Shown one piece after another: positions 4,109-59,372 of a stretch of DNA of 64,000 nt. How positions within the stretch are numbered: position 1 is the first letter of the stretch; the number at the start of each line of letters is the position of its first letter. This DNA is from a virus. Both the position numbers and the translations under genes were made by a program. The notes beneath the pieces are model-generated. The model made no database searches, was not told the DNA's origin, and worked only from the letters and a program-made list of their open reading frames with translations. The stretch lies in IMG/VR virus record IMGVR_UViG_3300045902_000324, positions 33,463-97,462 of that record; one strand, given 5' to 3'.

Positions 4109-7100
4109 ATGCCAATCCCTATTTTGGAACTTGACCCGGATTGGGAGATTCAAGAAGTCTCCACAATCGACCAGTACAAGTCTGAGCTAAATGACGGGTA
4201 CAAGCAGACGGCAACCAAAAATCTACCGTCGAGCATTCTGTCATGGGAAGTCCGAAAGACGGGGCTGTCTCAGGCAAATCTAAATCTGCTACTTGGCCAG
4301 CTAGAGACATTCGCAGGTAGCACCCCGTTTTCGTGGCGTCCCACGGAAACCGTCTCCTATCGAGCCTACTTCTGCGACGAGTGGACGGTGATTTCATACG
4401 ACACGGATTGCTGGCAAATATCCGGCAAGTTCGTTCAAGACGTTGGCGGCGAGTGTGTAGAGCTGCTTGATCTGATCGACACCGTGGAGATCACAAACTG
4501 GCTGGCGGCAAGCGATGTCTGGCTAACCACATACACCCGAAACACCCTCCCACTTATCATGAACTCTGTGGCAGGGAAACCCTATCTGCTGGTCAACTCT
4601 TTTCACGATGTGCTGGGTCGCGGCGGATACTTTCCCGGCAGCGCCGGGACGACCGAAGGGCAGTTCCTCATGATCCGAGCCTGTATGGATGTGTTCAACC
4701 AGACAGGCATTGCATCATGGCGGCAGCGGGCGATCGACATGGCTGTCGCGCTAGAACCATCTCTGTACCGAGGGCAGACCGTACCTGCCGATCCAAACAC
4801 GCTTTGGCTCCCACACTGGGTGTTTAACGTCAAGGCTCCGTTCACATCAAAAGGACTAAACACAGCCCCCAACCCGCTCAACTATGGTTACTTCGATCTC
4901 CCTGTAACATTCACGGCAGGCGTAGGTCAGATCTCGGCTGGAGCACCTAACCAAGGCGACAAGCTATCTGATGTCTACAGCGTCTATGCGACCGGAGCAA
5001 AGCTGCTGTGGCAAAACGTATTCGCGCCAGTCGTGTTCGGCACCCAGTACCAAGTCGAATACTGGGTGGTCAACTTCATGCTGGGTGGACAAAACTTCAG
5101 GATCTACCCGTCCTCAGCTTCGAGCAACGGAGCACCACCACTCGCTACGACTGAGCCTGCGGGACGGATCAAGCTGACCACAGCGTTTACCGGGAGTCTC
5201 AAAGTTACCTACGCTGCTTACACTGGGAGCGTTATCGTTGCGAATCAGGTCTTTGACCCGTATCCGTTCTGGCGCACGTTGTTGCCAGGTGAAATCAACT
5301 CTGCGTTTGACGTTCACTGGTGGGCTTACGATGCGTACGTGAAGCTGGCGGCAACTACAGGTCTTCTCAAGTGGACGCAGGCGGCTGAGGCGACTCGTGT
5401 CAACACGATCAACACAGCAGTCGTCCAAAACCCAACAAACTGGTACAAAACAGAGGACAACCCAAATCCATTCGGCTACCCCGGCTCTCAGGCTATTCAG
5501 GTAGACAACCCAAACGGCTACACCGCCAGCAGGGAGACAGCGATCGCGGGGCTACTCAATACCCTAAAGCTGGTCGTTGCGGCGGCACCGGGCGGCACGT
5601 TTCCTAGCATCGAGGTTCAGAACTTCGCGGTTCAAGCGCAGATTAACGCGGCTGTAACGATCGAGGTGGCGATCGCGCAGACTACCACAGCGACGGTTCG
5701 CATTGCGCTGTCGCTATCGCCAAACGCATTTGACTTCAGCCAAACCTATTACGTTAACTGGCACGTCGAGGCGAACACAACGGCGCTTACATCAACATCG
5801 TTCATCCCAGAAAACTTCTTCCGCTGGGATAACAACCTGGTGTGGCATTTGTCGATTGCTGAAACGCCTATCTACGTGTTCTCTGGCGGCGGCGGCAGCG
5901 CAACAACAGGGACGTTCCAGGCTACGAACATCCCATACCTGGGGAAAACACTCAAGCAGGCTGTGGGCGAAATTCAGATGAACGCAGCAGCAGGCTTTGC
6001 TGGTGCAGGGTTAGTGCTCATCGGCAGACAAGTTAGACGCCCTCCACAACTCGCGTTCAGGACAGACAAGACCATCATCCTTCGGCTTACCGACGGCGAG
6101 GGGTACAAGTGGGACAAGGAGATCGCCAATACAGGCGGGTGGGTCTTTGTTCGGTATCCGTGGAGCGCCTTCGAGTTTTCACCTAATAACATCGGGGAGG
6201 AACCGCAGGCACCGGACACACAGAACGACATCCAAAATATCGAGTTCATTGCGGTCGCTGGAGAAGGGTTGACCACAGTGCGGATCTGGTGGGCATCCGA
6301 GGGAACCACCAACCCACCCGCCCAGCTTCCTATTCCGGCTCAAACATACAAAGCCGCCGTGGTGTCTAGAAACCGGAATGCTCATACTTTTTGGGTCGGA
6401 AACTTCCGCCCGGCAAACAGTCCGAGTGATCAACTAAAGTACAACCCCGGCGTCGTTCCTTTTACAGTAAACATCGTCAACGGGGTTGTGGATGCTTGGC
6501 GGGGACTGCCTTACATGGGCTATCAAGACCCAGAACTTTGGTTCAAATGGGGGCTTACGGATCGCTGCCAGCAAGTGCTTGACTGTCTCGATGCCGCTCA
6601 AGATGCATACGCGGCATCCACAGGGGTTGTAGGGGCGTTTGCTCCAGTTTTCAAATGGGGCTACTGGGACGGCGGCGACTACCTGGGCGGACTGAACACG
6701 TTTAGCTGGTCTGGGGCTGACCCGAATACAAGCTGGGGACAATACTTCTATCGTCCGTTAGAAGCGACTGCCAAATACTGGAGCCAGAACCCAGGCGATC
6801 GCAAAGCAGATCAAATCGTCATGCGAGGGCTTGCGATGCTGGACGCGCACTACCTAAAAAACAATACCAGCGTACCGTTTACTGATTTCCCACAGGGTGC
6901 TCCGCCATTCGCTGGCTACAACGATCCTGCTGCGTCAGCTCTGATTGGCCGAGCAGCCGTCTATGCAAATCTAGCTGGCGGCAGTCCGTCTATCACGCTG
7001 CGTGTCATCAACCGGACAATAAAACACCTCCAGAGCCAGTATGTCTCAACAGGTATCATGGCGGGCACCTGGAGCGCCGGGCAGCCAACCTTCGTCAGTG

Positions 7101-7219
7101 GAGGAACAATCTATCGTGAATTCTTTGGGTTTTGGCTGGCCGAGATCTATCTATACTTAGCACTCTTGCTCGAAAAGAAGAACGCCCTAGTGATGCCCCC
7201 TTGTGGCACACGAATCTAG
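4109..7219 (+). CDS. Minor tail protein M/Dit-like domain fused to a GH8-like glycoside hydrolase and possible carbohydrate-binding module
   Basis: First ~110 aa match the gpM pattern (DGYKQ..FSWRP..YFCDEW..ISGKFVQ); GTTEGQFLMIRA resembles the GH8 TSEGQ motif; WVFVRYPWSAFEF is CBM-like. Confidence 0.65.
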   Translation: MPIPILELDPDWEIQEVSTIDQYKSELNDGYKQTATKNLPSSILSWEVRKTGLSQANLNLLLGQLETFAGSTPFSWRPTETVSYRAYFCDEWTVISYDTDCWQISGKFVQDVGGECVELLDLIDTVEITNWLAASDVWLTTYTRNTLPLIMNSVAGKPYLLVNSFHDVLGRGGYFPGSAGTTEGQFLMIRACMDVFNQTGIASWRQRAIDMAVALEPSLYRGQTVPADPNTLWLPHWVFNVKAPFTSKGLNTAPNPLNYGYFDLPVTFTAGVGQISAGAPNQGDKLSDVYSVYATGAKLLWQNVFAPVVFGTQYQVEYWVVNFMLGGQNFRIYPSSASSNGAPPLATTEPAGRIKLTTAFTGSLKVTYAAYTGSVIVANQVFDPYPFWRTLLPGEINSAFDVHWWAYDAYVKLAATTGLLKWTQAAEATRVNTINTAVVQNPTNWYKTEDNPNPFGYPGSQAIQVDNPNGYTASRETAIAGLLNTLKLVVAAAPGGTFPSIEVQNFAVQAQINAAVTIEVAIAQTTTATVRIALSLSPNAFDFSQTYYVNWHVEANTTALTSTSFIPENFFRWDNNLVWHLSIAETPIYVFSGGGGSATTGTFQATNIPYLGKTLKQAVGEIQMNAAAGFAGAGLVLIGRQVRRPPQLAFRTDKTIILRLTDGEGYKWDKEIANTGGWVFVRYPWSAFEFSPNNIGEEPQAPDTQNDIQNIEFIAVAGEGLTTVRIWWASEGTTNPPAQLPIPAQTYKAAVVSRNRNAHTFWVGNFRPANSPSDQLKYNPGVVPFTVNIVNGVVDAWRGLPYMGYQDPELWFKWGLTDRCQQVLDCLDAAQDAYAASTGVVGAFAPVFKWGYWDGGDYLGGLNTFSWSGADPNTSWGQYFYRPLEATAKYWSQNPGDRKADQIVMRGLAMLDAHYLKNNTSVPFTDFPQGAPPFAGYNDPAASALIGRAAVYANLAGGSPSITLRVINRTIKHLQSQYVSTGIMAGTWSAGQPTFVSGGTIYREFFGFWLAEIYLYLALLLEKKNALVMPPCGTRI

Positions 7220-7671
7220 CGAATCGGGCCGTTTCTATCACACACATATCGCACAATAGGGATCACGACATCATCTCCTGCTGCGATAGAACTACCGGGC
7301 ACTGTGTCTCTATCTGCGTTCAATCCGAAGAACGTGAACTGTGCAACACAAACACCATTGCTGCCGTGGTGGTCATAGTCGAGATCTGCTCCAAACGGCA
7401 TGTCGAGTCTGTCCACCCACACCGCCTCAAGTCCGGCTGGCGGCACGTTGCGATCTCGGTCGAGTGGGGGCTGACCCGTATCGGACTGGATCTCCAACAC
7501 CAGCGGTACCATATTTCTTGCTATCGACTGCGCCTCGGCATACAGAGCTTTGTTGCGCTGGTTCAAGTACGAGGGCAGCGCGATCGCAGACAGCACGCCG
7601 ACAATCGCAATTGTCACTAACAGTTCGATTAGCGTGAATCCTGGTTGACCATAATCAGTTCGTTCGTCCAT
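7216..7671 (-). CDS. pilA: Type IV pilin (PilA-like)
   Basis: Class III signal G|FTLIELLVTIAIVGVLSAIALPSYLNQ with Glu5; C-terminal Cys pair; N-terminal helix closely resembles cyanobacterial PilA. Confidence 0.9.
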   Translation of the reverse strand: MDERTDYGQPGFTLIELLVTIAIVGVLSAIALPSYLNQRNKALYAEAQSIARNMVPLVLEIQSDTGQPPLDRDRNVPPAGLEAVWVDRLDMPFGADLDYDHHGSNGVCVAQFTFFGLNADRDTVPGSSIAAGDDVVIPIVRYVCDRNGPIR

Positions 7672-7719
7672 ATCAGAATAAATACTAGCGATCGGACTCC
7701 AAGAGGCGATCGCGGTTAA

Positions 7720-8382
7720 TTAGGTGAAGAACCGAATACCAGCGAGAGTAACTTGCTGAGGGTTCGCAGGAGAGCCAAGGGCGTTAAAGTTTATGGCTCC
7801 GTCCGTGCCGCATCCAAGAACGACGTTAGCATTTGTGCCAAAATTCTCGACCGGATATCGCATCGTACTGGATGGCCTGAACCCAACTGGCAGCGTGCAG
7901 ATTGCGCCAGCGGCAAAAGCTAGTGGTCTACTAGCATAGCCCCGCATCAGGACTTCTCCGCGAATTTTTGTATACTGACACGCCTGAAAGCCAGCAGCGT
8001 TAACCCAGCTATTCTGGAACGAAACCGCTGCCCAAACGGGTGCGCCATTGGTATCTGCAAGCTGCCAAAAGCCGCTGGCGTGAATAAACTCAGCCCACTG
8101 GGTTGATCCCAGTGCCAGAGTGCCGTTCAAACTGATGCCATTCGTGTCTTGGAACGCGATGACATTTGCGCCTGCATTGTGGACGCGAACTCGCTGTCCA
8201 TTGCTGCCACTGGCAATCTGAGGGTTAGAGGTCAGCGTGATGTTCGCTGTCGAGGTGACAGGACACACCTGAAACGCCACGCCTGACGTGATGGCGATCG
8301 TGGTTCCGGCGACCAGCGCTTGACTGGAGTTGAGGATCGGAGTGGCAGTGTCGCCGACAGCAGCTCTAATTGCTCCAAGCAT
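7720..8382 (-). CDS. Putative tail fibre / receptor-binding protein
   Basis: Beta-rich; C-terminal WVN..QYTKIRGEVLMRG..TLPVGFRP pattern typical of phage fibre tips; lies in tail operon. Confidence 0.65.
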   Translation of the reverse strand: MLGAIRAAVGDTATPILNSSQALVAGTTIAITSGVAFQVCPVTSTANITLTSNPQIASGSNGQRVRVHNAGANVIAFQDTNGISLNGTLALGSTQWAEFIHASGFWQLADTNGAPVWAAVSFQNSWVNAAGFQACQYTKIRGEVLMRGYASRPLAFAAGAICTLPVGFRPSSTMRYPVENFGTNANVVLGCGTDGAINFNALGSPANPQQVTLAGIRFFT

Positions 8383-8483
8383 TAATCCTTCCTTTTGCCA
8401 ATCGCAATAATTTCAGCAACGCGCTCGATGATTGGCGTTATTTTCTTGAGCGCTTTACCCAGCCGCTTAAACAGTTTCTTCAA
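8382..8483 (-). CDS. 33-aa cationic amphipathic peptide MKKLFKRLGKALKKITPIIERVAEIIAIGKRKD (not in ORF track)
   Basis: TTG start 2 nt after the upstream stop, GGAGG 9 nt upstream, TAA stop overlaps the next ATG (TAATG). Confidence 0.75.
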   Translation of the reverse strand: MKKLFKRLGKALKKITPIIERVAEIIAIGKRKD

Positions 8484-8485
8484 GG

Positions 8486-9091
8486 CTACAGCCCTCCCCA
8501 ATAGAATTGCAAGGTTGTATTGGACGCAGCAGACGCCCGAATCCTAATCGTCTGCACAAAGAAGTCCCTGAAGTCGAATGCCAGAATCACCTTACCCGTT
8601 GTCGCATTTAGGGTGGTCGGATCAACACTCGCGCCCAGCGTGTCACCAGACAGCCGCAAGATTGAGTCTGACGGGGGAGCAGTGAAATGAGCGCCAGTGT
8701 TCAGATGGATCTGCATATCTGCACTGGCATTGCAGCGAGTTGATATCTCAAAACCGTTCAGGTTGGCTGCACCAATGTTATTCACCTGAAGCCGAAAGCG
8801 GGTCAGGGTGGGGATTTCGATAAAAGTGCCAGTGGATGCAGTGAGGGCGGTGCCGCCGACGACAGCAAGGTTCGTCGGGTTGCCGAACGATGCGCCTACG
8901 GCTGCTCCTGTGTCCACCTTGAAACGATCGCCTACTAGAGCCGTGGGAAGTAATGCCTGAATAGCAGCGGCGATCGCCGTCAGCGCCGGATCTCTGCGAA
9001 TCAAGTCATCCCCAGCCCCTCCGTTATCTTCCACCCGCATGGTGCGCGGGGTGTTCGTCCCGTCAATGTAAGTGCGTCCTACAATTGTCAT
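8486..9091 (-). CDS. Hypothetical, probably virion structural protein
   Basis: 201-aa Ala/Thr/Gly-rich beta-type ORF coupled within the tail operon. Confidence 0.6.
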   Translation of the reverse strand: MTIVGRTYIDGTNTPRTMRVEDNGGAGDDLIRRDPALTAIAAAIQALLPTALVGDRFKVDTGAAVGASFGNPTNLAVVGGTALTASTGTFIEIPTLTRFRLQVNNIGAANLNGFEISTRCNASADMQIHLNTGAHFTAPPSDSILRLSGDTLGASVDPTTLNATTGKVILAFDFRDFFVQTIRIRASAASNTTLQFYWGGL

Positions 9092-9093
9092 AG

Positions 9094-9888
9094 CTATCCG
9101 TTAGGGTCTACTTGACAATGCCCAATGTGCTCAGACAGTGGCGCAGGCATACCCACAGCGAAGCCCTGCAACAAAAGGTCGCACTGTGGGTATGGACGCA
9201 CCATCTCGTTCAACTCAGATATCAACGAGTCTGATTCGACCCACTCGGCAATACACAACAATCTAAGATCGTGACAAATGCTGAACAACCCTCGGATAAC
9301 AGCCCGATGTTTTGAGCTGTCCAGAACTCTAATCACAAACCCGCCGTTTATCTTTAGTCCGTCAATCTCTAGATTCACGATTGAGTCTAGATTTGAGTAA
9401 CCTATCCCAATATCGTCAAGCAAAATGGGAGACAATAGCGCCATACGCATCACGCTATCCCCAATTACTCGATAGTCGAGAGGCTGAGACTCAAGTACTT
9501 CTAGAATCAAACACGGCTCGATTAAACCGGACAGTACATCACCAACCCGGTCAGGTAAATCTTTATCGTGCAGTGATGCCGCCGTTAGATTAACTGTAAT
9601 TCTAATGTGCAGGTATCCACACGCTCTGAGCATCCGTAAATCATCGACAACTTGCCGCAACACCCAGGCATCAAGTGCGATCGCCAGCGTGTCAATTTCA
9701 AGAACGTCTGGAACGAACTGAGCCGCTTCAATGACACTCCCATCAGACCGGGACATCCGAATCAGAGCCTCAAACATTTTTGCAGGCTGCCCCAGTTCTG
9801 ACGGACGTTTTACTGGCTGATAGTAGACTCGCAAATCGCCACCGCCAGCCCGCAGTGCGTCCCACACTTTTTGTTGTATCTGGTTCAT
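9094..9888 (-). CDS. Stand-alone EAL-domain c-di-GMP phosphodiesterase
   Basis: YYQP, FEALIR, ITVNL, LEVLE, LDDIGIGYS, LKIN, AEWVE and LQGF motifs; ATG at 9888 overlaps the tipJ stop (TGATG). Confidence 0.9.
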   Translation of the reverse strand: MNQIQQKVWDALRAGGGDLRVYYQPVKRPSELGQPAKMFEALIRMSRSDGSVIEAAQFVPDVLEIDTLAIALDAWVLRQVVDDLRMLRACGYLHIRITVNLTAASLHDKDLPDRVGDVLSGLIEPCLILEVLESQPLDYRVIGDSVMRMALLSPILLDDIGIGYSNLDSIVNLEIDGLKINGGFVIRVLDSSKHRAVIRGLFSICHDLRLLCIAEWVESDSLISELNEMVRPYPQCDLLLQGFAVGMPAPLSEHIGHCQVDPNG

Positions 9889-12587
9889 CAAACGAAAACT
9901 AGATTCTGGGATCTGGACATATCCAAACCACCTGTGATTGCTGCAATCACAGGCTGGCTGTTTACCCACAGCGAGGTGCGATTGTTAACATCAAGCACGG
10001 CGGCGCGACAGTAGTATGTTCCCCTGGTCAGATTCTCGAAACGACACTCATTGGTGCCTGCGGGCACTAGTCGAGTGTCCTGCCATACAATCCCATCGCG
10101 GGAATATTCAACATACACGCCGCGCAGGACGGACGCACTGGCTCCAACAACCCATCGGATGATCAACGTGTACTGCGGAGAAACAGACGGGTCAATCGCC
10201 TGTACAGCGATCGCCTGCCCCAAAACAGATTGAAGTGGTTCTACAACAGGTGGAATCGTAAACCGAGTTGGGGTCGGATCAATGGCTATATCATTCTCAA
10301 TGGCAAGCCATTTGTTCGCATCGTACTGGATGCAGTTGATGTCGATTTTTGTCGGGTCTTGCTGCGGGCGGACTGAGAGCACTCTAAACAGTTGAGCTTT
10401 CACCGAAGGCGACTGAATTACCCAATTCGATTCAGCCTGTGGGAGCTGCGAGAACGGCGGCCACACCTGTACCACATTTGACGTGACATTAACGCCGATC
10501 GTCCGGGTTTCGAGCAATCCGTTTGGCAACATGACAGAAAGCGTCATGCTCGTATTTACGGTGACTGTCGCGTCTAATCGAATCGTGTTAGAGTTAATAA
10601 CTTGTCCGATCAACCCGCCATAGCGAACGTTGGCAAAGTTTGAGTCTGCGACTTGAATCACTTCACCGGGTCGGCAGTATGCAGCGTAGCTTCGAGCGGT
10701 GAAACTTAGCGATCGCGTTTCATTCTTCGAGCTGTACAGAATCCATCTACTATTTCTAATCGCTAGAGATCTTGAGGTGCACCCAAAAAAAGCAACCTCA
10801 ACATCGCGGACACCATAGCGGTTGATCGCCTCAATATCCTCGACTACTTCCACAGCCCGTTGGTAATAGTCATTCGGGTCATTCCAGACACCTCTAACAA
10901 TCGTATGCCGAGTGCGGACAGCCGTTGAGGAATAAACGAAATCCCCTACCACATCAGCCTGTGTGAACTGATGATGACTCACCGGAGTTGGACGATCTTG
11001 CCAGAACTTTACGGTACCCTCCGCCCAGTATGCCCGCATGTGGCACGCCGAGCAAAAGGCGTTGATTACATCCCACGCTTTTTCAGCGGAGGCGATTTGA
11101 GTGTTGCAGGAATATCGGCGCTCAGATCCGCCGAATCCCGTAGGTACATACCCATTGTTATAAACAGACGCATCATACAGATCCCACTTGTCGATTAAAG
11201 AGTCATCCAAGTATCGACCCAGCCCATAGCGCCGATTTGTCAAAATGTCGAACAGTTGCCAAACCGGGTCACTGGTGGCTGTTGCAGGTGTATAGAAATT
11301 GCCGTCCCACACGCCTGAGAAGTTCAGCCCGCGATCGCCTGCGACAATAGCATTCGTGGGAATCCGAACACGCCGTCCACCAACTCGATACTGACGAGAC
11401 GGGATCGAGCTGAACTGGTCTGGGCTAAACTGAAGCCCGATATACGCTGTATACGGATAATTCAACTTATTGGTCGTGACCTCGGTATAGCTAATCCACC
11501 GAACCACCTGAATTGTGCGAGACGAGTTGGAATCACTTGAAATACGCCTCAGTCGGATCTGAAAATTGCCGACCGTACCAGACTGGTTGTTTACCTTGAA
11601 AGCGTGCTCAAACTCAGTCAGTCCACTAAACTTAGCTTTCAGATTTTTTCTGTAGCGAACTGTCCAGGGCGCGATGCCCTGCTTTATTTCGATCTGGTAC
11701 TCTACGTTCGTCCCCTTTACATCTCCATCCTCCTCATACTTCACGAGTTGGATGCCCAGGCGAACACGTATGACATCACACTCCGTGTTCACAAATGCGC
11801 GAGTCGCTGGGCCGGACGCATTCTTGATTTCAATATTTACAAAAGTCTCATTGCTGATCTCAACTCCTTCGTCTGAGATAATCTGCTGCGTTGCGTTCCC
11901 GCGCCGGAACTTATACCGGAAGCCCACAAAGTTGAGTGAGTTATTTGGGTTCTGGACAGGCGTCTCAGATAGATAAATCCCTTTACGAGCACCAATCAGC
12001 CCTTCAATCGGGCCCTCTGAAACAGCCTCCAAGACGTACGCTCTTGAGGTCGATCGCCCGTCGTCATCGGCCTCCTTTGGGCTGGACGCATTTTTTCCGC
12101 CGCCTCCGTTGTGAACACGCAGCCCATGTTCGCCAACCAGGAAGCTGTGGTAGTTCTCAACTCGCAGATTCCATACGGGTGCCACGCCACGCAGTCTAGA
12201 TCGCTCCAGAGGTCTAACCAGGTTTTCTCTATCAAATAGCGCAGCGTCTCGGCCAAGCTTGCCTATCTCCTGAAACGCCCCGCCATCGGTCAGAAACCAG
12301 TGGATCGGAGTTGCTGCTATGGTGCCGCCCCAGTAATCGTACTCCCACACCTCGTGGTTTCCGTGGAACTCTAGCGTTGCTTTGGCTACATGCAAATCGC
12401 CTTTTGAGTCAAACGCTGATACCCATGTACCCTCCGCCACATCCTGGATTTCTACAGTGCCATCTAGCGTGTGGATTAGCGTGCCGGACGGGAAACACCC
12501 CCCGCCTGATCCAAAAACAAGCCCGTCCACATGGCTTGACGGGATGGATGCAACAGCCTTAGTGCGGCGACGCCTAACCTTCGTCAT
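9888..12587 (-). CDS. tipJ: Central tail tip protein J with N-terminal Hint domain
   Basis: AVSEGPIEGL, YPYTAY, WDGNF, DPVWQLFDILTNRRYGLG, GCTSRSLA, RPGEVIQVAD motifs; Hint CFPSGT...VHN at 12497-12108. Start placed at MTKV (uncertain). Confidence 0.9.
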   Translation of the reverse strand: MTKVRRRRTKAVASIPSSHVDGLVFGSGGGCFPSGTLIHTLDGTVEIQDVAEGTWVSAFDSKGDLHVAKATLEFHGNHEVWEYDYWGGTIAATPIHWFLTDGGAFQEIGKLGRDAALFDRENLVRPLERSRLRGVAPVWNLRVENYHSFLVGEHGLRVHNGGGGKNASSPKEADDDGRSTSRAYVLEAVSEGPIEGLIGARKGIYLSETPVQNPNNSLNFVGFRYKFRRGNATQQIISDEGVEISNETFVNIEIKNASGPATRAFVNTECDVIRVRLGIQLVKYEEDGDVKGTNVEYQIEIKQGIAPWTVRYRKNLKAKFSGLTEFEHAFKVNNQSGTVGNFQIRLRRISSDSNSSRTIQVVRWISYTEVTTNKLNYPYTAYIGLQFSPDQFSSIPSRQYRVGGRRVRIPTNAIVAGDRGLNFSGVWDGNFYTPATATSDPVWQLFDILTNRRYGLGRYLDDSLIDKWDLYDASVYNNGYVPTGFGGSERRYSCNTQIASAEKAWDVINAFCSACHMRAYWAEGTVKFWQDRPTPVSHHQFTQADVVGDFVYSSTAVRTRHTIVRGVWNDPNDYYQRAVEVVEDIEAINRYGVRDVEVAFFGCTSRSLAIRNSRWILYSSKNETRSLSFTARSYAAYCRPGEVIQVADSNFANVRYGGLIGQVINSNTIRLDATVTVNTSMTLSVMLPNGLLETRTIGVNVTSNVVQVWPPFSQLPQAESNWVIQSPSVKAQLFRVLSVRPQQDPTKIDINCIQYDANKWLAIENDIAIDPTPTRFTIPPVVEPLQSVLGQAIAVQAIDPSVSPQYTLIIRWVVGASASVLRGVYVEYSRDGIVWQDTRLVPAGTNECRFENLTRGTYYCRAAVLDVNNRTSLWVNSQPVIAAITGGLDMSRSQNLVFV

Positions 12588-13167
12588 CGGAATCATCCTC
12601 AATCATGTACGACCGGATCGAGGCACTGAGCACCTGACTACCAACGAGCAGTTCTCCATACACGACTGGCAGACGACCCCCTTGAGTCGTCGTATTGACC
12701 CCGCCATTAAAAATTAACGATGGTTTGTTTTTTGCATCATTCGGGTCAGGTGCTTTGGGCTGGTTAAACAGTTCCATGATGCCGGACAGTGCCAGACTAC
12801 CCCCGATCAGTGCGACGGATGCCGCCGACAACCCCAGGAAGCCCACGCCAGTCGCACCCAAAACAACCAGACCGATTCCAAGCAAAATTTTGCCGAATGC
12901 CCCACCTCCACCCAATGGCGTTGGCGCTATCGTAATTGTCTGTTTTCCAGTCGGCATCGAGACGTGCTGTTGCTCAATAGCCCAATCCCCGACAGTAATC
13001 TGGAAACCTACCCCACGCTCATGCGCGACGACCATGTAGTTGCGAAATGTCGGGAACGCTGACTCAAGGGCCCTGATCGCTTCTTTCACCGATCCAACGT
13101 TTAATCGGATCTCAGAAATGAACCGATCTGCCAACTCATCTTTCAACACAACAGTCACCATCGGCAT
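12574..13167 (-). CDS. Tail assembly protein I (ubiquitin-like domain, Gly motif, hydrophobic segment)
   Basis: SVKEAIRAL, PLGGGGAFGKILLG, QGGRLPVVYGELLVGSQV; lambda L-K-I-J order. Confidence 0.9.
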   Translation of the reverse strand: MPMVTVVLKDELADRFISEIRLNVGSVKEAIRALESAFPTFRNYMVVAHERGVGFQITVGDWAIEQQHVSMPTGKQTITIAPTPLGGGGAFGKILLGIGLVVLGATGVGFLGLSAASVALIGGSLALSGIMELFNQPKAPDPNDAKNKPSLIFNGGVNTTTQGGRLPVVYGELLVGSQVLSASIRSYMIEDDSDDEG

Positions 13168-13994
13168 TACAAAAACGCCTCATGTCGAAAGGTAAACCGT
13201 GCAACCTCCTGCCAGTGCCCGCCGTACACTCTGGTTTCTGACAGGCGATCGCCGTTCAGCAAGTGCAGCAGCACCGGACGATCACCGACTTCCACAATCA
13301 CGCCGCAGTGGTGCGGAATCTCTGACTCGATAGCCATGATCGGTACGTCATACAGCCGCAACGGTTCAGTCGGATCGATTTCCACAAATCCGATCTGCGG
13401 CATATACTCTGTGAACGTGGCCCAGGCACCGCCACGTAGCTGGATAGCTGGCTCCGGTGCCCTATCAAAATCAGGCAGTTCAATATTTAAGAATCCACGG
13501 TAGAAATTCCGCAACAGCGTGTAGCAGTCCGCCCTCGCCCACACCCAGCGCCAGCCCAGGTAGAACTCTAAATCTGTTGGCTGCCCAATTCGGGGTTGCA
13601 GAGGAAACGGATTTAGCCCAGCAGGATCGTAAAAATCCCAAACCCTGTCCAACCTGTGGAACATGGCAATCGGATTCATCAACGCTCGTCCAGTGTTGAT
13701 GTCCATGTAAGACAATTCAGCAGGCTGCGTTTCAAGCACATGGCTGTGGTAAACCGATTGAACAGACATGCCGTTGTCAGACAATGCATCGTACGCCTTT
13801 CGGTCAAACGCAAAATAGTTGGCTGTGTCGCCAGCAACGTTTTGGAGCGGCGCGACCGTAAGCATTCCAGACGGGTCAACGCAGACAGCACCACAGATTT
13901 CCTCATCTGGGTTTTCGTCAGCGAGTGCTTCAATCTGCAATCGGATTTCGGATGAGTAGGGCAACATCTGTGATGGGCGAAACACCCTAGACAT
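13167..13994 (-). CDS. Tail assembly protein K (JAB/MPN + NlpC/P60)
   Basis: EEICG, YHSH..ELSYMD JAB motif; ADCYTL..HCGV NlpC motif. Confidence 0.9.
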   Translation of the reverse strand: MSRVFRPSQMLPYSSEIRLQIEALADENPDEEICGAVCVDPSGMLTVAPLQNVAGDTANYFAFDRKAYDALSDNGMSVQSVYHSHVLETQPAELSYMDINTGRALMNPIAMFHRLDRVWDFYDPAGLNPFPLQPRIGQPTDLEFYLGWRWVWARADCYTLLRNFYRGFLNIELPDFDRAPEPAIQLRGGAWATFTEYMPQIGFVEIDPTEPLRLYDVPIMAIESEIPHHCGVIVEVGDRPVLLHLLNGDRLSETRVYGGHWQEVARFTFRHEAFL

Positions 13995-14007: not shown

Positions 14008-14673
14008 CTAAAAACGTCTCAGTCCTGGGAAGCCGCCGAAAGGCAAAACTGAGTTTTTACCGAATCGTCTGGTGCAGGCTGTCACAGACTTTGAACAGTC
14101 ATCCAGCGACGGGTCTAAGGTTCGCTTATTGTCCAAAGTGAAATACGTGGTGCCGACATAACTGCACTCAGCGGAGCGATACACCCACGGGCACTTTGTA
14201 CCGCATGGTCGTCCCGGCACGGACTCGTCTACAAAGTCAATTGGTGCAGACAGCTCAAACTCCAGCATCTTTCCAGGGATCTCCTGAATACGCTGGCTGA
14301 TTACATACAGTCCGTCCAGCCTCAATGCTGCGGGATCTGCGGTTGTCTCTGAGTCGAGATATCGTTTCAGCGTCCGATAGACAGCTAGTCTGGCACCCTC
14401 AAGCCCGTCATAGTAATAGACCAGGTTGGAAATACCTTTCGTCGTGTCATCCACACGCAGCTTTGGTCTGGCTAACGACCCTTCAGATGACATCTCTTCA
14501 CCGGACAGTTCGCAATTTACTGGCGTGTATTGGACGCCGCCCATAACCACACCAACGCCAGCCGTAAAGTACGCCGTTTCTGCCAAGTTACGACGGTTGA
14601 AGTTTGTCATGCGAAACAGCGTCAGTACGGCATCATGTTCAAGCTGCTGAAGCGATGGGAAAAAAACTGTCAT
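14008..14673 (-). CDS. Minor tail protein L
   Basis: CPWVYRSAECSY..DDCSKSVTACTRRFG..LPFGGFPG Fe-S-type C-terminus. Confidence 0.92.
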   Translation of the reverse strand: MTVFFPSLQQLEHDAVLTLFRMTNFNRRNLAETAYFTAGVGVVMGGVQYTPVNCELSGEEMSSEGSLARPKLRVDDTTKGISNLVYYYDGLEGARLAVYRTLKRYLDSETTADPAALRLDGLYVISQRIQEIPGKMLEFELSAPIDFVDESVPGRPCGTKCPWVYRSAECSYVGTTYFTLDNKRTLDPSLDDCSKSVTACTRRFGKNSVLPFGGFPGLRRF

Positions 14674-14987
14674 GGTGCGGGGGACCTTTCAAATTCTGCG
14701 GAGAACCCCCACAGCCCGACGGTTCCGTACCACTGCCAGCGCCATTGCGTGCAGGTATATTGAGCGTTCTGAAAAACAAACCGTCTTCCGTCACGCTCGA
14801 TTAGGAACGCCTGCACTTCCGTATATCGCGTCGTGTTGATTTGCACGAACCAGGTACGATCCGTCCGGTTCACGTCATACAAAACCGGGCGCTGCTGGAT
14901 TCCCTGAACTCGCGCCGATGGCGATCGCACTTTGGTGCGATAGCTGGACTCTCGTGCTATCGATATTGGGAATGTCGGGGGTGGCAT
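14670..14987 (-). CDS. Second minor tail protein M-like gene
   Basis: ~105 aa with EVQAFL..GRRFVF..YTCTQW..FSAEFE pattern, directly upstream of gpL. Confidence 0.7.
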   Translation of the reverse strand: MPPPTFPISIARESSYRTKVRSPSARVQGIQQRPVLYDVNRTDRTWFVQINTTRYTEVQAFLIERDGRRFVFQNAQYTCTQWRWQWYGTVGLWGFSAEFERSPAP

Positions 14988-14993
14988 TGCGTC

Positions 14994-15018
14994 GGGTATG
15001 GTCTTTTGAACCATACCC
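14994..15018. promoter_or_regulatory. Perfect 9-bp inverted repeat GGGTATGGT-N7-ACCATACCC between divergent tail and lysis genes
   Basis: Seen directly; sits in the 39-bp gap between ATG 14987 (-) and ATG 15027 (+). Confidence 0.5.
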
Positions 15019-15026
15019 ACACACAC

Positions 15027-15758
15027 ATGGAACCCTTCAACCTTCAGTCGGCAAAGCCATTAGCGTTTCTCTCACCGGAACAAATCACATGGGTTCAGCA
15101 CCAACTAAAGCGAGGTGCATACCTGGAAAAAGTGGACGGCATCGTGGGGCCTGCCACACTGAACGCTCTAAAGTCGTTCAAATCTGATTTCTACCTTGAG
15201 CATCCAGAGTTGATCGGCAACACAACTCTCAAGGCTCTGTCTGAACTCGACCCACCGGATAAAGTCACTGAGCAAGCAACCGAGATTATTCTGACGGTGA
15301 ACGCAGCCGCCGGATCTAGAACAGGTCGATCCGCCACACTGCCGGGAGCTGGGCTGGTCTACGCAAACCAGTGGATCAGACCCGGCATCCCACTTACGTG
15401 GGGCGAAATGACTAAAGATATGACACGTCTCCCAACCGACAAAACAGTAGTCGCCAACATTGTCAACTTTGCCGCCGCATTTGGACAGATTCGAGCCAAG
15501 TTTGGTTCTCCTATTGCAATCACGTCTGGGTATCGCCCAAAGGCAGTAAACGATGCGATCGGCGGAGCATCCAAATCTCAGCACGTACCTGGCAAGGCTG
15601 CGGACATCCGCCCAGCTAACGGCGAATTCGACAAGCTCTTAGCAGTTCTCAAATCAATTGATGCGGTCGGAGGCATTGGGCTAGGCGAGAAAGCTGGCGG
15701 GTTTCTCCACGCAGATACCAGGGAGAAGCGAGTCATTTTTCCATACGGTAGCCGCTGA
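15027..15758 (+). CDS. Endolysin: peptidoglycan-binding domain + peptidase M15A
   Basis: VDGIVGPATLNALKSF PG-binding motif; ITSGYR..SQHVPGKAADI..HADTR. Confidence 0.88.
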   Translation: MEPFNLQSAKPLAFLSPEQITWVQHQLKRGAYLEKVDGIVGPATLNALKSFKSDFYLEHPELIGNTTLKALSELDPPDKVTEQATEIILTVNAAAGSRTGRSATLPGAGLVYANQWIRPGIPLTWGEMTKDMTRLPTDKTVVANIVNFAAAFGQIRAKFGSPIAITSGYRPKAVNDAIGGASKSQHVPGKAADIRPANGEFDKLLAVLKSIDAVGGIGLGEKAGGFLHADTREKRVIFPYGSR

Positions 15759-18218: not shown

Positions 18219-19472
18219 ATGATGACACGCAGAGTTACCTTTAGGCTGTATCCATCTGAAGCGCAAACGGCAAAGCTGTTTGAGGCTCGGAGGCTTCACG
18301 CCTATCTCTATAACGCTTGCGTTGAGCATCGTAAAACGAGCTATCAGAAGTTTGGCAAGTCCATCAGCTATTTTGATCAGCAAGCCGCGCTTGTACCGTT
18401 TAAGGCTGATTGGCAGGAGTATAGAGCGCTCAATCATGGCTCATTGCAAGCCACAGTGAAGCGGGTTGATTTTGCCTTCCAGCGCTTTTTCAAAGGACTG
18501 GGTGGGTATCCCAAGTTTCAAGCGATTCGCCGTTACTCTGGCTGGACATACCCTGATGCCCGTCAAGGCTTTAAGGTGCATTCAGACGGCAAGAATGGAT
18601 ACTTGGAATTGCGGGATCTAGGGCTAAAGCTCCAGATGCGAGGGCAAGCGCGAACTTGGGGCGCTCCCACGACTTGCACAATTGTCTATCGTAACGGGCT
18701 ATGGTTTGCCAGCATCACGGTAAATTGCGAGGTTGCGCGCAAAACCGGCAATGGCGCGGTAGGAATCGATTTTGGCGTACTGACGGCTGCGGCATTGTCA
18801 AATGGAACCAAGATCGAAAACCCGCGCTTCATTGCCAAAACGCAAGCCAAGGTTCGCAAAGCAAGCAAGGCAAAGCGTCGCAAGCGCTCACCCAATCTCA
18901 AGCAAAAAGTTAAAGCGTCAAAACGATGGAGGAAAGCGTCTAAGCGGGTATCAAAGCTGCAACGCAAAGTTGCAAATCAGCGGCAGAACTGGGTACATCA
19001 AGTCTCTACACAGATAGTCAGCAGTAATAGCTTGGTAGCGACTGAAAAGTTAAACCTCAAAGGGATGACTCGCAAGGCGAGGAAAGGAAAACGCAAGGCG
19101 CAAAAGTCAGGGCTAAACCGCTCCATTCTGGATGTTGGGATGGGGATGTTGCGCGCTGCGATTGCGTATAAGTTGGCGGAAGCAGGGGGTTTCTTTGTGG
19201 AGGTGCCGACGCTCACGGTTAAGCCTTCTCAGACTTGCCCCAGTTGTGGTCATCAGGAGAAAAAACCACTTGAGCAGCGAGTGCATCATTGCCAGCAATG
19301 CGGTTATGTGGAGGATAGAGATGTGGCGGCTGCTCAAGTCATGCTCAATTGGGCACGGGGTAAGGAACTTGCCTCGTCAAACGTGGATGGGTCTGGCTCT
19401 ACTGACTGCGGAAGCATGAAGCAACTAGCCCAAACGAAGCGTCAGAAACTCCTAGCTCAGCGAAGCGGCTAG
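18219..19472 (+). CDS. tnpB: TnpB RNA-guided nuclease
   Basis: FRLYP, GIDFG, TEKLN, SQTCPSCG..CQQCG..DRDVAAA. Confidence 0.95.
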   Translation: MMTRRVTFRLYPSEAQTAKLFEARRLHAYLYNACVEHRKTSYQKFGKSISYFDQQAALVPFKADWQEYRALNHGSLQATVKRVDFAFQRFFKGLGGYPKFQAIRRYSGWTYPDARQGFKVHSDGKNGYLELRDLGLKLQMRGQARTWGAPTTCTIVYRNGLWFASITVNCEVARKTGNGAVGIDFGVLTAAALSNGTKIENPRFIAKTQAKVRKASKAKRRKRSPNLKQKVKASKRWRKASKRVSKLQRKVANQRQNWVHQVSTQIVSSNSLVATEKLNLKGMTRKARKGKRKAQKSGLNRSILDVGMGMLRAAIAYKLAEAGGFFVEVPTLTVKPSQTCPSCGHQEKKPLEQRVHHCQQCGYVEDRDVAAAQVMLNWARGKELASSNVDGSGSTDCGSMKQLAQTKRQKLLAQRSG

Positions 19473-46197: not shown

Positions 46198-47487
46198 CTA
46201 CGCAACGGGCTGAAGCCGCGTTGCTCCGCTTTTCCCTTGAGCTGTCACCCACAACTTAATGCGGGTGGGGGCAGTCAATGACCCCCTACCAACTCCGCTC
46301 AGACTAAATCCAAGCATCGTCGCTACTTTACGCAGGATGTTGGCAGCGCCATTACAATCCGCGTTGATGTACCAGTTCTGGGCAGTCCTGAACAAGCCTC
46401 GCTTCGTCCGCTTCCCCGATGACTTCCAGCTATCAGGTTTTTCACCGAATGTCGGCAAAAAGTCACCATCCACAAACGATGCTTGAGAGGTATAAGACTC
46501 CTCAGTTTCAACAAACTCTATCCCGTACTGCTCCGCCAGTTGAGCAATCCGCTCTTTTAGCCTTGCAGTTGGGATCTGCACAAACTTCTGATTGGTCTTC
46601 TTGCCCAGGTTGGAGCCGTCCTTTTGCCGCTGGTTCCAGCCAAATACAATCCGACCAATCCGGTTATCAATGCAATGGTCAATCACAATCCTAGCCGCTT
46701 TGTTCACTGCATCACGTATCTGCCGATTGCGCTTCTCAGTGAGTTGTGCAAGCCGCTTTGACCAAAAGCCTTGAGCCTTACCTTCTCTCAGTTTGGCAAT
46801 TTGCTTGTTGTACCAGCGGTTCAACGATTTGAGGTGGAGTCCATCCACAATGAAGCTGGTTCCCACGGTACTGACGCAGGTGAGCCAGTTATTTAATCCC
46901 GAATCGATGCCCAGCACCCGCATCGGGTCTACATCAGTCTGGATGGGGTTCAGTCGATAGACAAACTCAGTGTAGAAACACCCATTGCGCGGCAGAATCC
47001 GCAGTTCCTTGATGTCCTCAAATTTGAGATTGGAGGGCATGGGGACAGTGAACGAATCAATCTGAAACCATACTTTCACTAACTGCCCCAGCGGAACCCG
47101 GATCATCCCATCAATCAGCTTCAGCGCTTGTTTGGGATAGCTGACTACTGCCAACCCTCCCTTCTTGCGGTAATTTGGCATCCTGGGTTTCTCCGCCAGT
47201 TCTCCACCTCGCCACAGTTTCAACAATGCTCGGTAGGACTTAAACGACTCGTAGACCGAAATCAAGGTTTGCTGTGCAGCCTGGGAGTAAAGAGCTTGGA
47301 AGTGCTTACTGGTCTTGTATTCGTAACTCAGGCTGTGTTTGCCAATCCACTGCCCAGTCTTAAAGTGCAGTTGGCGAGCATAGTAGATGCCCTGATTGGT
47401 TAGCTTGTTTGCCTCAGAGCAGACAAAATCCATCACCCCCTTAAGTTCGTTATTGGGGTTGAGCAAAACTTGCTGACATCCAAACAT
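46198..47487 (-). CDS. tnpB: TnpB (IVFGWN/EESYTS subtype)
   Basis: GIDSGLNN, IVFGWN, EESYTS, NADCNGAANI. Confidence 0.93.
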   Translation of the reverse strand: MFGCQQVLLNPNNELKGVMDFVCSEANKLTNQGIYYARQLHFKTGQWIGKHSLSYEYKTSKHFQALYSQAAQQTLISVYESFKSYRALLKLWRGGELAEKPRMPNYRKKGGLAVVSYPKQALKLIDGMIRVPLGQLVKVWFQIDSFTVPMPSNLKFEDIKELRILPRNGCFYTEFVYRLNPIQTDVDPMRVLGIDSGLNNWLTCVSTVGTSFIVDGLHLKSLNRWYNKQIAKLREGKAQGFWSKRLAQLTEKRNRQIRDAVNKAARIVIDHCIDNRIGRIVFGWNQRQKDGSNLGKKTNQKFVQIPTARLKERIAQLAEQYGIEFVETEESYTSQASFVDGDFLPTFGEKPDSWKSSGKRTKRGLFRTAQNWYINADCNGAANILRKVATMLGFSLSGVGRGSLTAPTRIKLWVTAQGKSGATRLQPVA

Positions 47488-47544
47488 GGTGAGTTTATGC
47501 AACAATTGTCTACAGCATAGCCCAGATAGACAAACAGGTGAACT

Positions 47545-47940
47545 ATGGACTGCCAGAAAAGCCGCAGTGCAACGCATTTGCTGAACTATCACTTTGTCTG
47601 GATTCCTCGGCGACGCAGACCTGTTTTACGAGGAGAAATAGCAAATCGGTGCAGGCAGTTGATATGGGAAGCAGCAGAGGAGATTGATTGTCAAGTTGTG
47701 TCGTTGGCAATTGAGCCGGATCATGTCCACCTCTTTGTTAACTGCCCTCCAACAATTGCGCCCTATCAAATCATCCATCGAATTAAGGGGCGAACTGCAC
47801 GGTTCCTCAGACAGGAATTTCCTAATCCATTAATGAAACTGCCATCCATGTGGACATCCAGTTACTTTGTCTCAACGGCTGGCAATGTTAGCAGTGAAAC
47901 AATTCAGCGCTACATTGAAGCTCAGGGCAAGAGTAATTGA
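47545..47940 (+). CDS. tnpA: Y1 HUH transposase
   Basis: YHFVWIPRRR, PDHVHLF, WTSSYFVSTAG, YIEAQ. Confidence 0.95.
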   Translation: MDCQKSRSATHLLNYHFVWIPRRRRPVLRGEIANRCRQLIWEAAEEIDCQVVSLAIEPDHVHLFVNCPPTIAPYQIIHRIKGRTARFLRQEFPNPLMKLPSMWTSSYFVSTAGNVSSETIQRYIEAQGKSN

Positions 47941-53200: not shown

Positions 53201-53872
53201 ATGATCCAAGTCTTACCTGCCCAGCAAATATCCCCGTACCGTTTACAGCGGTATAGCGGCAACTCAAAAATCCACACGCCTAAGCAGATTGACCATATCT
53301 GTGGACTCATTACGGAGTTTGGGTTTACTGAACCGATTCATGTAAACGAGAATTACGAAATACTGGCCGGGCACGGTCGGCACATGGCAGCGCTTCAGCT
53401 CAAAATGGCGCTCGTCCCAATCATTCAGATCACGGGGCTAACCGAAAGCCAGCAGCAGACGTACCGTATCGCCCACAATCAGAGTCAACTCAGTACTGGC
53501 TTTGATTCGGACATACTAAAGTCCGAGGTACAAAGTCTGTGCTTCAAAGATTACGGCGTGGGGCTGCTTGGTCTGAGCGATCGCCAGCTCAAAGACTTAA
53601 AAATAACGGTGCCGGAACTACCGGATCTAGACAACCTGTCACTTGAGCCACTGCCCAAGGCACCAGTTGGAGGCAGAGTGTCGTCATCCAGGGTGTCGGC
53701 CCCATCCGCTTCGACCGCTCAGCCTGTTGTGGAGAGAACAGAGAGAATTATCCCCACTGCGGCGGCTATTGTGCCAGAAGCGAGGGAGTACATAGTCATG
53801 CGACTCAAATCCCACGACTGGGATAACGAAACGACAGCAGTCCTTCAGCAAATTGTCTCGCTTCTAGGCTAG
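53201..53872 (+). CDS. ParB N-terminal (ParB/Srx) domain protein
   Basis: NSKIH..QI..FGFTEPI..ILAGHGR..YRIAHN. Confidence 0.85.
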   Translation: MIQVLPAQQISPYRLQRYSGNSKIHTPKQIDHICGLITEFGFTEPIHVNENYEILAGHGRHMAALQLKMALVPIIQITGLTESQQQTYRIAHNQSQLSTGFDSDILKSEVQSLCFKDYGVGLLGLSDRQLKDLKITVPELPDLDNLSLEPLPKAPVGGRVSSSRVSAPSASTAQPVVERTERIIPTAAAIVPEAREYIVMRLKSHDWDNETTAVLQQIVSLLG

Positions 53873-54454
53873 ACATCCGTCAAGCGACTGCCGCAAATTC
53901 GCATGTATATCTTTCAATCGACGCGATACTGTGACCGGGCTACATCCCATATGGGTAGCAACCTGTTTGTATGTCCACCCCTGAAAATAAATCAGTTCTA
54001 CAATCTGCCGATCCCGTTCAGGCAACTCACCTACCGCTATTTCTACCGATCGGTGTGAATCCTGTATTTCCCTGTCTGGGAAGTCGATTGATCCGGACAG
54101 GGTATCGGTCGAATAGACAACTGTCCTCGCACCTTCACGGGGCGATCGCATTACGTCCATTCCGTCTCTGATAAAGTGGCGGATCTCCCCAGACAAGTGT
54201 TTATATACATAACTGGCAAACGGACACCCGTTATCGGGATCGAACACATCAATCAGGTCAAGCAACTTTAGAGATGCAATCTGATAGAAGTCGCCGTATC
54301 CGTACAAATTAGTCCGCTGTCCAACGCAGCACTGGGATGCAATTCTCTTAACCAGAGGGCTGTTTACCCAGGCAATCTCATTTCGGATATTCAGGTCTGA
54401 CCTTGTTGGCAAATAGGCACGAAACAATTCACGGTTCTTACGGGCGTAGTCCAT
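53864..54454 (-). CDS. Alternative sigma factor, SigF/SigB-like
   Basis: RNEIAWVNSPLVKRIA, DFYQIA..FDPDNGCPFASY..GEIRHFIRD; region 4 LPERDRQIV..VSRRL. Confidence 0.88.
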   Translation of the reverse strand: MDYARKNRELFRAYLPTRSDLNIRNEIAWVNSPLVKRIASQCCVGQRTNLYGYGDFYQIASLKLLDLIDVFDPDNGCPFASYVYKHLSGEIRHFIRDGMDVMRSPREGARTVVYSTDTLSGSIDFPDREIQDSHRSVEIAVGELPERDRQIVELIYFQGWTYKQVATHMGCSPVTVSRRLKDIHANLRQSLDGCLA

Positions 54455-54464
54455 TGGATGACCC

Positions 54465-54496
54465 AAAAAAGGAGTGTCCCGGACGCGGGACACTCC
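54465..54496 (-). terminator. Rho-independent terminator directly upstream of the sigma gene
   Basis: 10-bp stem GGAGTGTCCC/GGGACACTCC followed by T6 on the minus strand. Confidence 0.75.
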
Positions 54497-54518
54497 CATT
54501 TTGTCATAAGCGTAAACC

Positions 54519-59139: not shown

Positions 59140-59287
59140 TGAACGTGCAGCCTGGGGGCGGCGTCTGCGGATAGGGCGGGCACTGCTCTGAGGCTACACC
59201 GGGCTGGACAAGAGCGCTCAATACGGTCAAGAAGAACACAAAACTCCTCGTCAGGGCGATTGCGGTAGCCACTAAATTGTTTACCAT
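59123..59287 (-). CDS. Putative secreted 54-aa peptide (not in ORF track)
   Basis: MVNNLVATAIALTRSFVFFLTVLSALVQPGVASEQCPPYPQTPPPGCTFTSLPD; AGAGG upstream. Confidence 0.4.
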   Translation of the reverse strand: MVNNLVATAIALTRSFVFFLTVLSALVQPGVASEQCPPYPQTPPPGCTFTSLPD

Positions 59288-59372
59288 GAACAAACCTCTC
59301 TATGGGGTATCGCCTGGGTTTCTGTCAAAAATCGCCCAGGCGGTTTACTCGGACTACAAAACTAGTCGATAA

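Follow-up and report, generated by a model that had tools for sequence, protein, structure and literature searches.

A stand-alone EAL protein and a type IV prepilin in the tail-tip operon of a cyanophage, and the recurrence of the pair in other phages

Why would a phage encode, among the genes for its tail tip, both a putative phosphodiesterase for cyclic di-GMP (c-di-GMP), a second messenger, and a subunit of type IV pili? The question arises from a 64,000-nucleotide stretch of viral DNA, here called the window, which comprises bases 33463-97462 of the 97,462-bp linear IMG/VR record IMGVR_UViG_3300045902_000324 (the whole phage genome is referred to as G000; CheckV estimates the 97-kb record to be 84% complete). 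The window encodes a stand-alone EAL protein of 264 amino acids, a putative c-di-GMP phosphodiesterase (9094-9888, minus strand; Pfam EAL, E-value 1.4e-36), and, as the last gene on the same strand, a type IV prepilin of 151 amino acids (7216-7671; N_methyl 2.6e-8, TIGR02532 3e-9, phrog_3433 'pilin' 5.3e-11). HIP1 (GCGATCGC), a cyanobacterial palindrome, occurs 57 times in the window against 1.8 expected from shuffled sequences, and we therefore take the host to be a cyanobacterium. We propose that the two genes form a functionally linked accessory pair that is mobile between cyanophages and acts on host c-di-GMP and type IV pili, a reading to which we give an even chance.

An earlier, sequence-only reading of this DNA had described a stand-alone EAL gene translationally coupled to tipJ (the gene for the tail-tip protein gpJ) and an operon-terminal prepilin with an intact G/FTLIE cleavage site. 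Both descriptions are borne out: the EAL open reading frame (ORF) runs from 9888 to 9094 and starts in a TGATG overlap, and the prepilin ORF runs from 7671 to 7216 and scores above the cut-offs of both N_methyl and TIGR02532.

Recurrence of the EAL-pilin pair

Scanning IMG/VR with an alignment of the pilin led to a second phage contig (L004, part of G001; 74.8 kb, 213 HIP1 sites) in which the two genes are direct neighbors. A pilin homologue (58694-59200; 47% identity) is followed with zero gap by a gene for a 241-residue stand-alone EAL protein (59201-59926; Pfam 3e-35), which is 36% identical to the window protein (E-value 3e-48). The order in G001 is endolysin, DUF3307, a gene for a 180-residue protein, pilin and EAL, and the contig gave no match to gpJ, sigma-70 region 2 or GGDEF. 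It shares about seven genes with the phage studied here: the M15 endolysin, DUF3307, pilin, EAL, a piece of the tape-measure gene, part of a 1081-residue protein and one weak, short match. In a third contig, G002 (94.7 kb, 94% complete, HIP1-rich), about 5 kb contain an endolysin in two parts, a pilin that belongs to the Pilin_GH family, DUF3307 and EAL, the last three within 4 kb; its EAL gene lies 3 kb from the pilin gene and is broken by a +1 frameshift. In both contigs, the pair is on the same strand as the endolysin and downstream of it.

The G002 region (L071:8836-14105) has further irregularities. The endolysin is represented by two ORFs, a 302-residue ORF repeats the EAL N-terminus, and a 148-residue ORF repeats parts of the 302-residue ORF and of DUF3307, so that the region looks damaged or mis-assembled.

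An EAL gene within 10 kb of a pilin gene was found in two of 80 pilin-bearing IMG/VR loci (1.26 Mb in total). These are G001 and G002, both from HIP1-rich cyanophages, and only three of the 80 loci are HIP1-rich at all. If the window is included, EAL lies no more than 4 kb from pilin in three of the four HIP1-rich, pilin-bearing phage contigs; HIP1-rich G003 has a pilin gene but no EAL gene across its 43.8 kb. The link between EAL and pilin is thus real and extends beyond this phage. The sequence-only reading had made its case depend on conserved co-occurrence in related phages, and G001 and G002 provide it. Of the tipJ-EAL-pilin synteny for which it had proposed a search, the link between EAL and pilin recurs: the two genes are direct neighbors in G001, and 3 kb lie between them in G002. 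Since the pair lies beside the endolysin in both of these contigs and G001 lacks gpJ, placement in a tail operon is not a conserved feature but is particular to this phage. The 'cassette' of that reading is broken up here by two virion-type genes.

A DUF3307 membrane protein also accompanies the pair. Its gene is situated inside the pilin-EAL cluster in G001 (L004:9144-9479) and G002 (L071:10627-11031) and elsewhere in the present genome (33002-33391, plus strand; Pfam DUF3307 1.3e-5), where the product shares 36% identity with the copy in G001 and 28% with that in G002.

Such recurrence could also come about if EAL and pilin were two independent accessory genes, each useful alone, which co-occur because the late structural and lysis modules of cyanophages gather accessory genes at their ends and which have no joint mechanism. 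The two genes are not adjacent in this phage, and the clusters in G001 and G002 lie in variable regions beside the endolysin, among unknown ORFs. Pilin without EAL is common in phages, as illustrated by 77 of the 80 loci, where no EAL gene was found, by the HIP1-rich G003 and by the pilin-bearing phages S-CAM7 and ACG-2014f. The EAL gene of the window also has a lower G+C content at third codon positions (0.49) than its neighbors (0.55-0.59), which fits a separate insertion. Against independence, phages otherwise very seldom carry an EAL gene (of 40 'phage' database matches, most were bacterial contamination), yet in all three EAL-bearing cyanophage contigs the gene is within 4 kb of pilin; in G001 the two abut; and the window phage and G001 have both genes in common and almost nothing else. 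We regard two independent genes as unlikely, while rating this the foremost of the alternatives.

The EAL protein and the prepilin

The EAL protein matches the Pfam EAL family (PF00563) with 126.5 bits, against a cut-off of 31.3, over model positions 10-223 of 236 and contains neither a sensor domain nor a signal peptide. Aligned to MorA (4RNI) and compared with the residue feature list for PDE-A enzymes in PMC12943098, it has the YQP and EALxR motifs, N100, E130xxE133, D158 and D159, K179, E215 and Q241. The catalytic and metal-binding residues are thus intact, as had been claimed, with KID present as KIN, and the substrate-binding positions are likewise all there. Two more departures from MorA are found in loop 6, where DDFGTGYSSL is replaced by DDIGIGYSNL, and in EGVE, which reads EWVE.

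Close relatives are few. A word-indexed search of 5.8 billion proteins revealed no EAL relative above 31% identity, and a profile search of 1.84 billion representatives recovered a small clade of stand-alone EAL proteins of 239-311 residues. Its members P0107, P0108 and P0109 score 220-264 bits, the next matches at most 147 bits; P0109 is recorded from a 3.3-kb contig of a Microcoleus metagenome-assembled genome. In an alignment of 11 clade members with pairwise identities of 26-45%, the invariant columns (Q24, P25, E40, L42, R44, D73, N100, E130, E133, D158, D159, K179, E215 and Q241) essentially coincide with the catalytic set. Loop 6 keeps its D, its G and mostly an S or N, with the remainder free to vary, and the 'D' of KID is likewise variable. 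Purifying selection on a functional enzyme would be expected to leave such a pattern. Across IMG/VR scans with EAL, gpJ, the 1036-residue tail protein described below and the alignments A2, A4 and A5, G001 was the sole clade relative found, and a scan of genome contigs with the EAL alignment yielded only GGDEF-EAL proteins of Methylobacter, other gammaproteobacteria and acidobacteria at about 30% identity.

An AlphaFold2 model of the protein has a mean predicted local distance difference test (pLDDT) of 92.3 and a predicted template modelling (pTM) score of 0.89. Foldseek places it closest to MucR (5m1t; TM-score 0.83, probability 1.00), followed by MorA, BifA and TBD1265, and the model thus predicts the modified TIM-barrel EAL fold. 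The active enzymes MucR, MorA (4rnh/4rni), BifA (8arv) and RocR (3sy8) of P. aeruginosa and TBD1265 (2r6o/3n3t) of T. denitrificans have this fold in common with the phage protein (TM-scores 0.80-0.83, 22-28% identity), as well as YQP, ExLxR, N, ExxE, DD, K, E and Q. Unlike them, the protein is phage-encoded and stand-alone, without a sensor, GGDEF or receiver domain. It has DIGIGYSN, KIN and EWVE in place of the usual DFG(T/A)GYSS, KID and EGVE, and it belongs to a small, divergent clade with no more than 31% identity to ordinary bacterial EAL proteins. The protein is apparently a working c-di-GMP phosphodiesterase.

A different possibility is that the protein is a non-catalytic, c-di-GMP-binding adaptor in the manner of FimX or LapD, docked on the pilus motor or on another host target. 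EAL domains of FimX, which control type IV pilus assembly via PilZ and PilB, are indeed among both the sequence and the structure matches, and neither loop 6 nor the KID motif is kept intact across the clade. However, the metal ligands, the catalytic lysine and the general-base glutamate are all invariant there, and the best matches are active enzymes, which makes an adaptor role very improbable.

The prepilin begins with MDERTDYGQPG followed by FTLIELLVTIAIVGVLSAIALP, and thus has G at -1, F at +1 and E at +5 ahead of a hydrophobic alpha1-N helix. With 33.5 bits for N_methyl (cut-off 21.2) and 36.3 bits for TIGR02532 (cut-off 16.3), it is, by these sequence features, predicted to be a bona fide prepilin. 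Full-length relatives among the 5.8 billion proteins are limited to P0015 (57% identity) and P0016 (47%), both of which retain G-1, F+1, E+5, Cys108 and Cys144. All other matches are confined to the N-terminal helix, including those to the Synechococcus myophages S-CAM7 and ACG-2014f. Like these phage-borne prepilins (PHROG 3433; 49-56% identity over residues 3-53), the window protein comes from a phage, but the likeness stops at the helix, the globular domain being related only to P0015 and P0016, and here the gene is part of a tail operon of siphovirus type, with a link to an EAL gene. The 151-residue protein has no match to a Pfam pilin head domain, and its AlphaFold2 model, a long helix (residues 14-65) with three strands, is of low confidence (pLDDT only 48.7). 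A metagenome scan with the pilin alignment gave only generic pilins among the matches listed. A further pilin relative, P0268, comes from a 15.5-kb contig.

Because its topology is spanin-like and its gene neighbors the endolysin in both other contigs, we also considered the pilin as a lysis accessory. We set this idea aside as less likely because the PilD site is conserved.

The tail-tip operon

In this phage, the pair belongs to a block of minus-strand genes in the order gpL, gpK-like, gpI, gpJ, EAL, a 201-residue protein, a 33-residue ORF, a 220-residue protein, a 48-nt spacer and the prepilin. An early gene of the operon encodes the minor tail protein gpL (14008-14673; TIGR01600 phage_tail_L 5.7e-35, Pfam Phage_tail_L 1.1e-36). 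It is followed by a gpK-like protein of 275 residues (13167-13994), whose assignment follows from lying between L and I and whose sole family signal is a weak Prok-JAB match (E-value 0.008), and by the tail assembly protein gpI (12574-13167; Pfam Lambda_tail_I 3.2e-6, phrog_32 1.1e-39). The central tail fiber or tip attachment protein gpJ (9888-12602) is recognized by phrog_31 (6.4e-186), Pfam FNIII-A_GpJ (1.2e-23) and Phage-tail_3 (2.4e-16). The homologues of L, I and J, and K by position only, follow the lambda-type order (M-L-K-I-J), tightly packed on one strand. Downstream of EAL lie the 201-residue protein (8486-9091), which has no assigned family and no match in Pfam, PHROG or NCBIfam; a strongly cationic candidate ORF of 33 residues read from the sequence (LKKLFKRLGKALKKITPIIERVAEIIAIGKRKD; 8382-8483), with tight junctions on both sides; and a 220-residue protein of tail fiber or receptor-binding type (7720-8382; phrog_3285 minor tail protein, 8.7e-7). 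Virion genes thus flank the EAL gene on both sides.

The EAL start codon uses the A of the gpJ stop codon (TGATG), and on the way from gpJ to the 220-residue gene, neighboring genes are joined by TGATG, then by two gaps of 2 nt each and lastly by TAATG; the block therefore reads as one operon. From gpL to the pilin, genes overlap or nearly abut, the exception being the 48-nt spacer before the pilin (7672-7719), which contains two HIP1-type palindromes and could form a hairpin. This hairpin folds no better than shuffled sequence (z -0.74). A scan for promoters and terminators gave no more sites than shuffled sequence did.

This arrangement bears on the possibility that the genes serve lysogenic conversion or a carrier state, in which a resident prophage or plasmid would alter the surviving host (making it motile and non-aggregating, with altered pili that exclude pilus-binding phages) rather than act in lytic growth. 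Lambdoid phages keep conversion genes after gpJ; in the temperate Citrobacter phage Chris1, a GGDEF-EAL gene sits between the integrase and the tail fibers; and the pilin is preceded by a spacer of its own. Yet the overlap of the EAL start with the gpJ stop leaves no room for a separate promoter, the promoter scan stayed at chance level, no integrase was found among the ORFs scanned, and the genes come after the endolysin, on its strand, in both G001 and G002. We consider conversion improbable.

The ESM Atlas places the 201-residue protein nearest to clusters that are viral or unnamed, and its structural neighbors are galactose-binding-like domains; as a lead only, it is probably a virion-associated, carbohydrate-binding-like beta-sandwich. 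Atlas neighbors of the 220-residue protein are all viral and its structural neighbors are baseplate and receptor-binding proteins, a lead toward a protein of receptor-binding or baseplate type. On the plus strand, downstream of the tape-measure gene, a convergent tail gene (4109-7219) encodes 1036 residues and overlaps the pilin stop codon with its own; the tail-tip genes are therefore divided between two convergent strands. Its product combines a gpM-like N-terminus (below the Pfam cut-off) with a glycosidase-like body (phrog_2871, 3e-136) that also matches phage proteins with a glycosidase or glycosyl hydrolase annotation, and it may be a virion depolymerase.

Two further observations concern the ends of these genes. 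Just upstream of gpL, a 114-residue ORF (14673-15029, minus strand) joins it through an ATGA overlap; it has no Pfam match and ends in FSAEFE, which we take to resemble the end of lambda gpM. It starts at most about 12 bp from the likely initiation codon (ATG at 15027) of the divergent M15 endolysin, leaving almost no intergenic space for promoters between the two late operons. The N-terminus of gpJ (window 12108-12602, about 165 residues) resembles Hint or bacterial intein-like domains, beginning with GGGCFPSG and ending with VHNGGGG, with Gly at +1; over residues 33-165, it matches Hint and PT-HINT of Pfam weakly.

A proposed action on c-di-GMP and type IV pili

How might the pair act? In this phage, the two genes would be transcribed with the tail-tip genes (L-K-I-J-EAL-201-220-pilin), presumably late. 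The EAL protein would be a cytoplasmic phosphodiesterase that converts c-di-GMP to pGpG, so that the host pool would collapse late in infection, and as it has no sensor, we propose that it is constitutively active. The pilin would be cut by the host PilD between G11 and F12 and join the pool of pilins in the inner membrane and the pilus machinery. The whole phage record contains one N_methyl match and no prepilin peptidase or assembly genes, and the pilin would thus rely on the host. Jointly, the two proteins would alter surface behavior that depends on pili and c-di-GMP, such as motility, aggregation, exopolysaccharide production, competence and the availability of pili as docking sites for phages. 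The likeliest benefit would be a reduction, at the infected or lysing cell, in both superinfection and loss of progeny, together with dispersal from the mat matrix. Pili might be either blocked or sustained. With the EAL protein in the cytoplasm and the pilin head in the periplasm, we make no claim that the two bind each other.

Published work makes such a target plausible for cyanobacteria. One preprint reports that c-di-GMP controls type IV pilus functions in these bacteria (bioRxiv 10.64898/2026.03.27.713163). Pili of Synechococcus were reported to collect cyanophages, S-CAM7 most strongly (bioRxiv 10.1101/2025.09.20.677514), and this phage itself has a pilin gene.

Some phage proteins, among them Tip of D3112, Aqs1 of DMS3 and PfsE of Pf4, shut down type IV pili and thereby exclude superinfecting phages. 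The outcome proposed here is alike in that pilus function is changed to the benefit of the phage, but these are small proteins that bind PilB or PilC, in contrast to a signal-degrading enzyme and a pilin subunit, and there is no homology between them. With respect to c-di-GMP, a recent review calls the elements carried by phages 'few' and lists only a GGDEF-only protein from phage YuA along with the c-di-GMP riboswitch of PhiCD119 (Römling 2023, PMC10333796); phage peptides that bind YfiN have also been reported (PMC8085984). In addition, Citrobacter phage Chris1 (ON041214.1) has its GGDEF-EAL gene just after the tail fiber genes, as in the present phage. All of these likewise interfere with host c-di-GMP signaling, but none is a stand-alone EAL protein, paired with a pilin or found in a cyanophage. 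A literature search found no paper linking cyanophages with EAL enzymes. EAL enzymes and phage pilin genes are thus each known, while the conserved EAL-pilin pair and the divergent clade of stand-alone EAL proteins represent a new form of putative host-takeover genes.

Destruction of c-di-GMP could instead be a means of counter-defense, with the EAL protein removing c-di-GMP or another cyclic dinucleotide signal of a host defense, such as a STING-type cyclic oligonucleotide-based antiphage signaling system (CBASS), and the pilin being unrelated. A stand-alone, sensor-less enzyme is what one would expect of a signal sponge or nuclease. However, a late operon is the wrong place for an early-acting function, the conserved partner is a pilin and not an anti-defense gene, and the substrate-binding residues are those of c-di-GMP-specific enzymes. 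The anti-STING/CBASS alternative offered by the sequence-only reading hence gains nothing from either the late-operon position or the pilin partner, and we think it highly unlikely.

Several observations weigh against a linked action of EAL and pilin on c-di-GMP and pili. The recurrence rests on three contigs, one of which, G002, is frame-broken and rearranged in this region, and all three clusters occupy late or lysis regions that are rich in accessory genes and tend to gather unrelated extras. In the window, the two genes are separated by 1.4 kb with two virion-type genes and the small ORF, and the 48-nt spacer with its possible hairpin makes co-transcription of the pilin less than certain. 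Loop 6 counts in dimerization and catalysis of RocR-type enzymes (PMC12943098), and that of the phage protein (DIGIGYSN) departs from DFG(T/A)GYSS. The tail proteins look glycan-directed, the 1036-residue protein being glycosidase-like and the 201-residue protein carbohydrate-binding-like, and pili therefore need not be the receptor of this phage. Finally, the phage also encodes a GGDEF protein, which clouds the net effect on c-di-GMP signaling.

This GGDEF protein of 284 residues (genome 22939-23793, minus strand; L173:3943-4794; Pfam 1.3e-33) is encoded about 9.7 kb before the start of the window and has a hydrophobic N-terminal region with a weak DUF4118 match. Its signature reads GGDAF, with the fourth residue changed from E to A, and an RxxD site (RRTD) is intact five residues upstream. 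Alanine at the fourth position should abolish cyclase activity, and instead of a cyclase, the protein may be a receptor for c-di-GMP. Its presence means that the dealings of this phage with c-di-GMP go beyond 'lowering'. More broadly, though only tentatively and with some doubt, we suggest that HIP1-type cyanophages of freshwater, mats and soil carry a mobile kit for the takeover of c-di-GMP and type IV pili, made up of EAL and pilin, often DUF3307, and here also the membrane GGDEF protein as a possible receptor. If so, infected mat cyanobacteria would have reprogrammed pili, either shut off, with progeny kept and rivals excluded, or running, with the cell moving before it bursts, and host behavior would be controlled through a second messenger.

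Manipulation of c-di-GMP by phages is barely documented, and in cyanobacteria this messenger and type IV pili govern phototaxis, aggregation, buoyancy and DNA uptake. A sensor-less EAL protein together with a phage pilin would offer a two-gene handle on the viral steering of mat- and bloom-forming cyanobacteria. A compact, constitutive phosphodiesterase could also be a tool to lower c-di-GMP in these organisms.

The sequence-only reading had further added to the cassette a SigF/SigB-like sigma factor encoded elsewhere. An ORF of the sigma-70 family is indeed present (211 residues; 53864-54499, minus strand; Sigma70_r2, r4 and r4_2) and passes the general models TIGR02937, Sigma70_r2 and Sigma70_r4. 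It does not reach the cut-offs of the SigF models, scoring 99 bits with PRK07408, the best of them (cut-off 261), and 85 bits with TIGR02980 (cut-off 234), and 'SigF-like' is accordingly a best-hit label only. The gene lies 44 kb from the pilin and has no homologue in G001, and a weak sigma-like match in G002 is 57 kb from its EAL gene. The window contains no match to the SigF-type promoter, for which we used TAGGC-N10-18-GGTAA as a pattern. Nothing ties the sigma factor to the EAL-pilin pair, and we leave it out of the module.

With regard to the origin of the phage, megablast against GenBank phages gave no DNA-level match to the window, and the IMG/VR contigs L001 and L002 are from unrelated, low-GC phages that have gpJ alone in common with it. 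The only sequencing runs that match the stretch, none of them listed as RNA, are labeled as hot-spring and microbial-mat metagenomes, which may be the source of the phage; the stretch is contiguous in these read sets, at a phage depth of 28-33x. Two transposase-like genes lie within the phage genome, at 18219-19472 (plus strand) and 46198-47592 (minus strand), with matches to phrog_506 at E-values of 1.4e-93 and 1e-40, respectively. In the same runs, a 3-kb contig at 300-560x depth matches the window at positions 7545-7593 only (49 nt, 8 differences), the part of the pilin gene that codes for the N-terminal helix. This contig probably carries the pilin gene of an abundant mat organism, which is perhaps the host.

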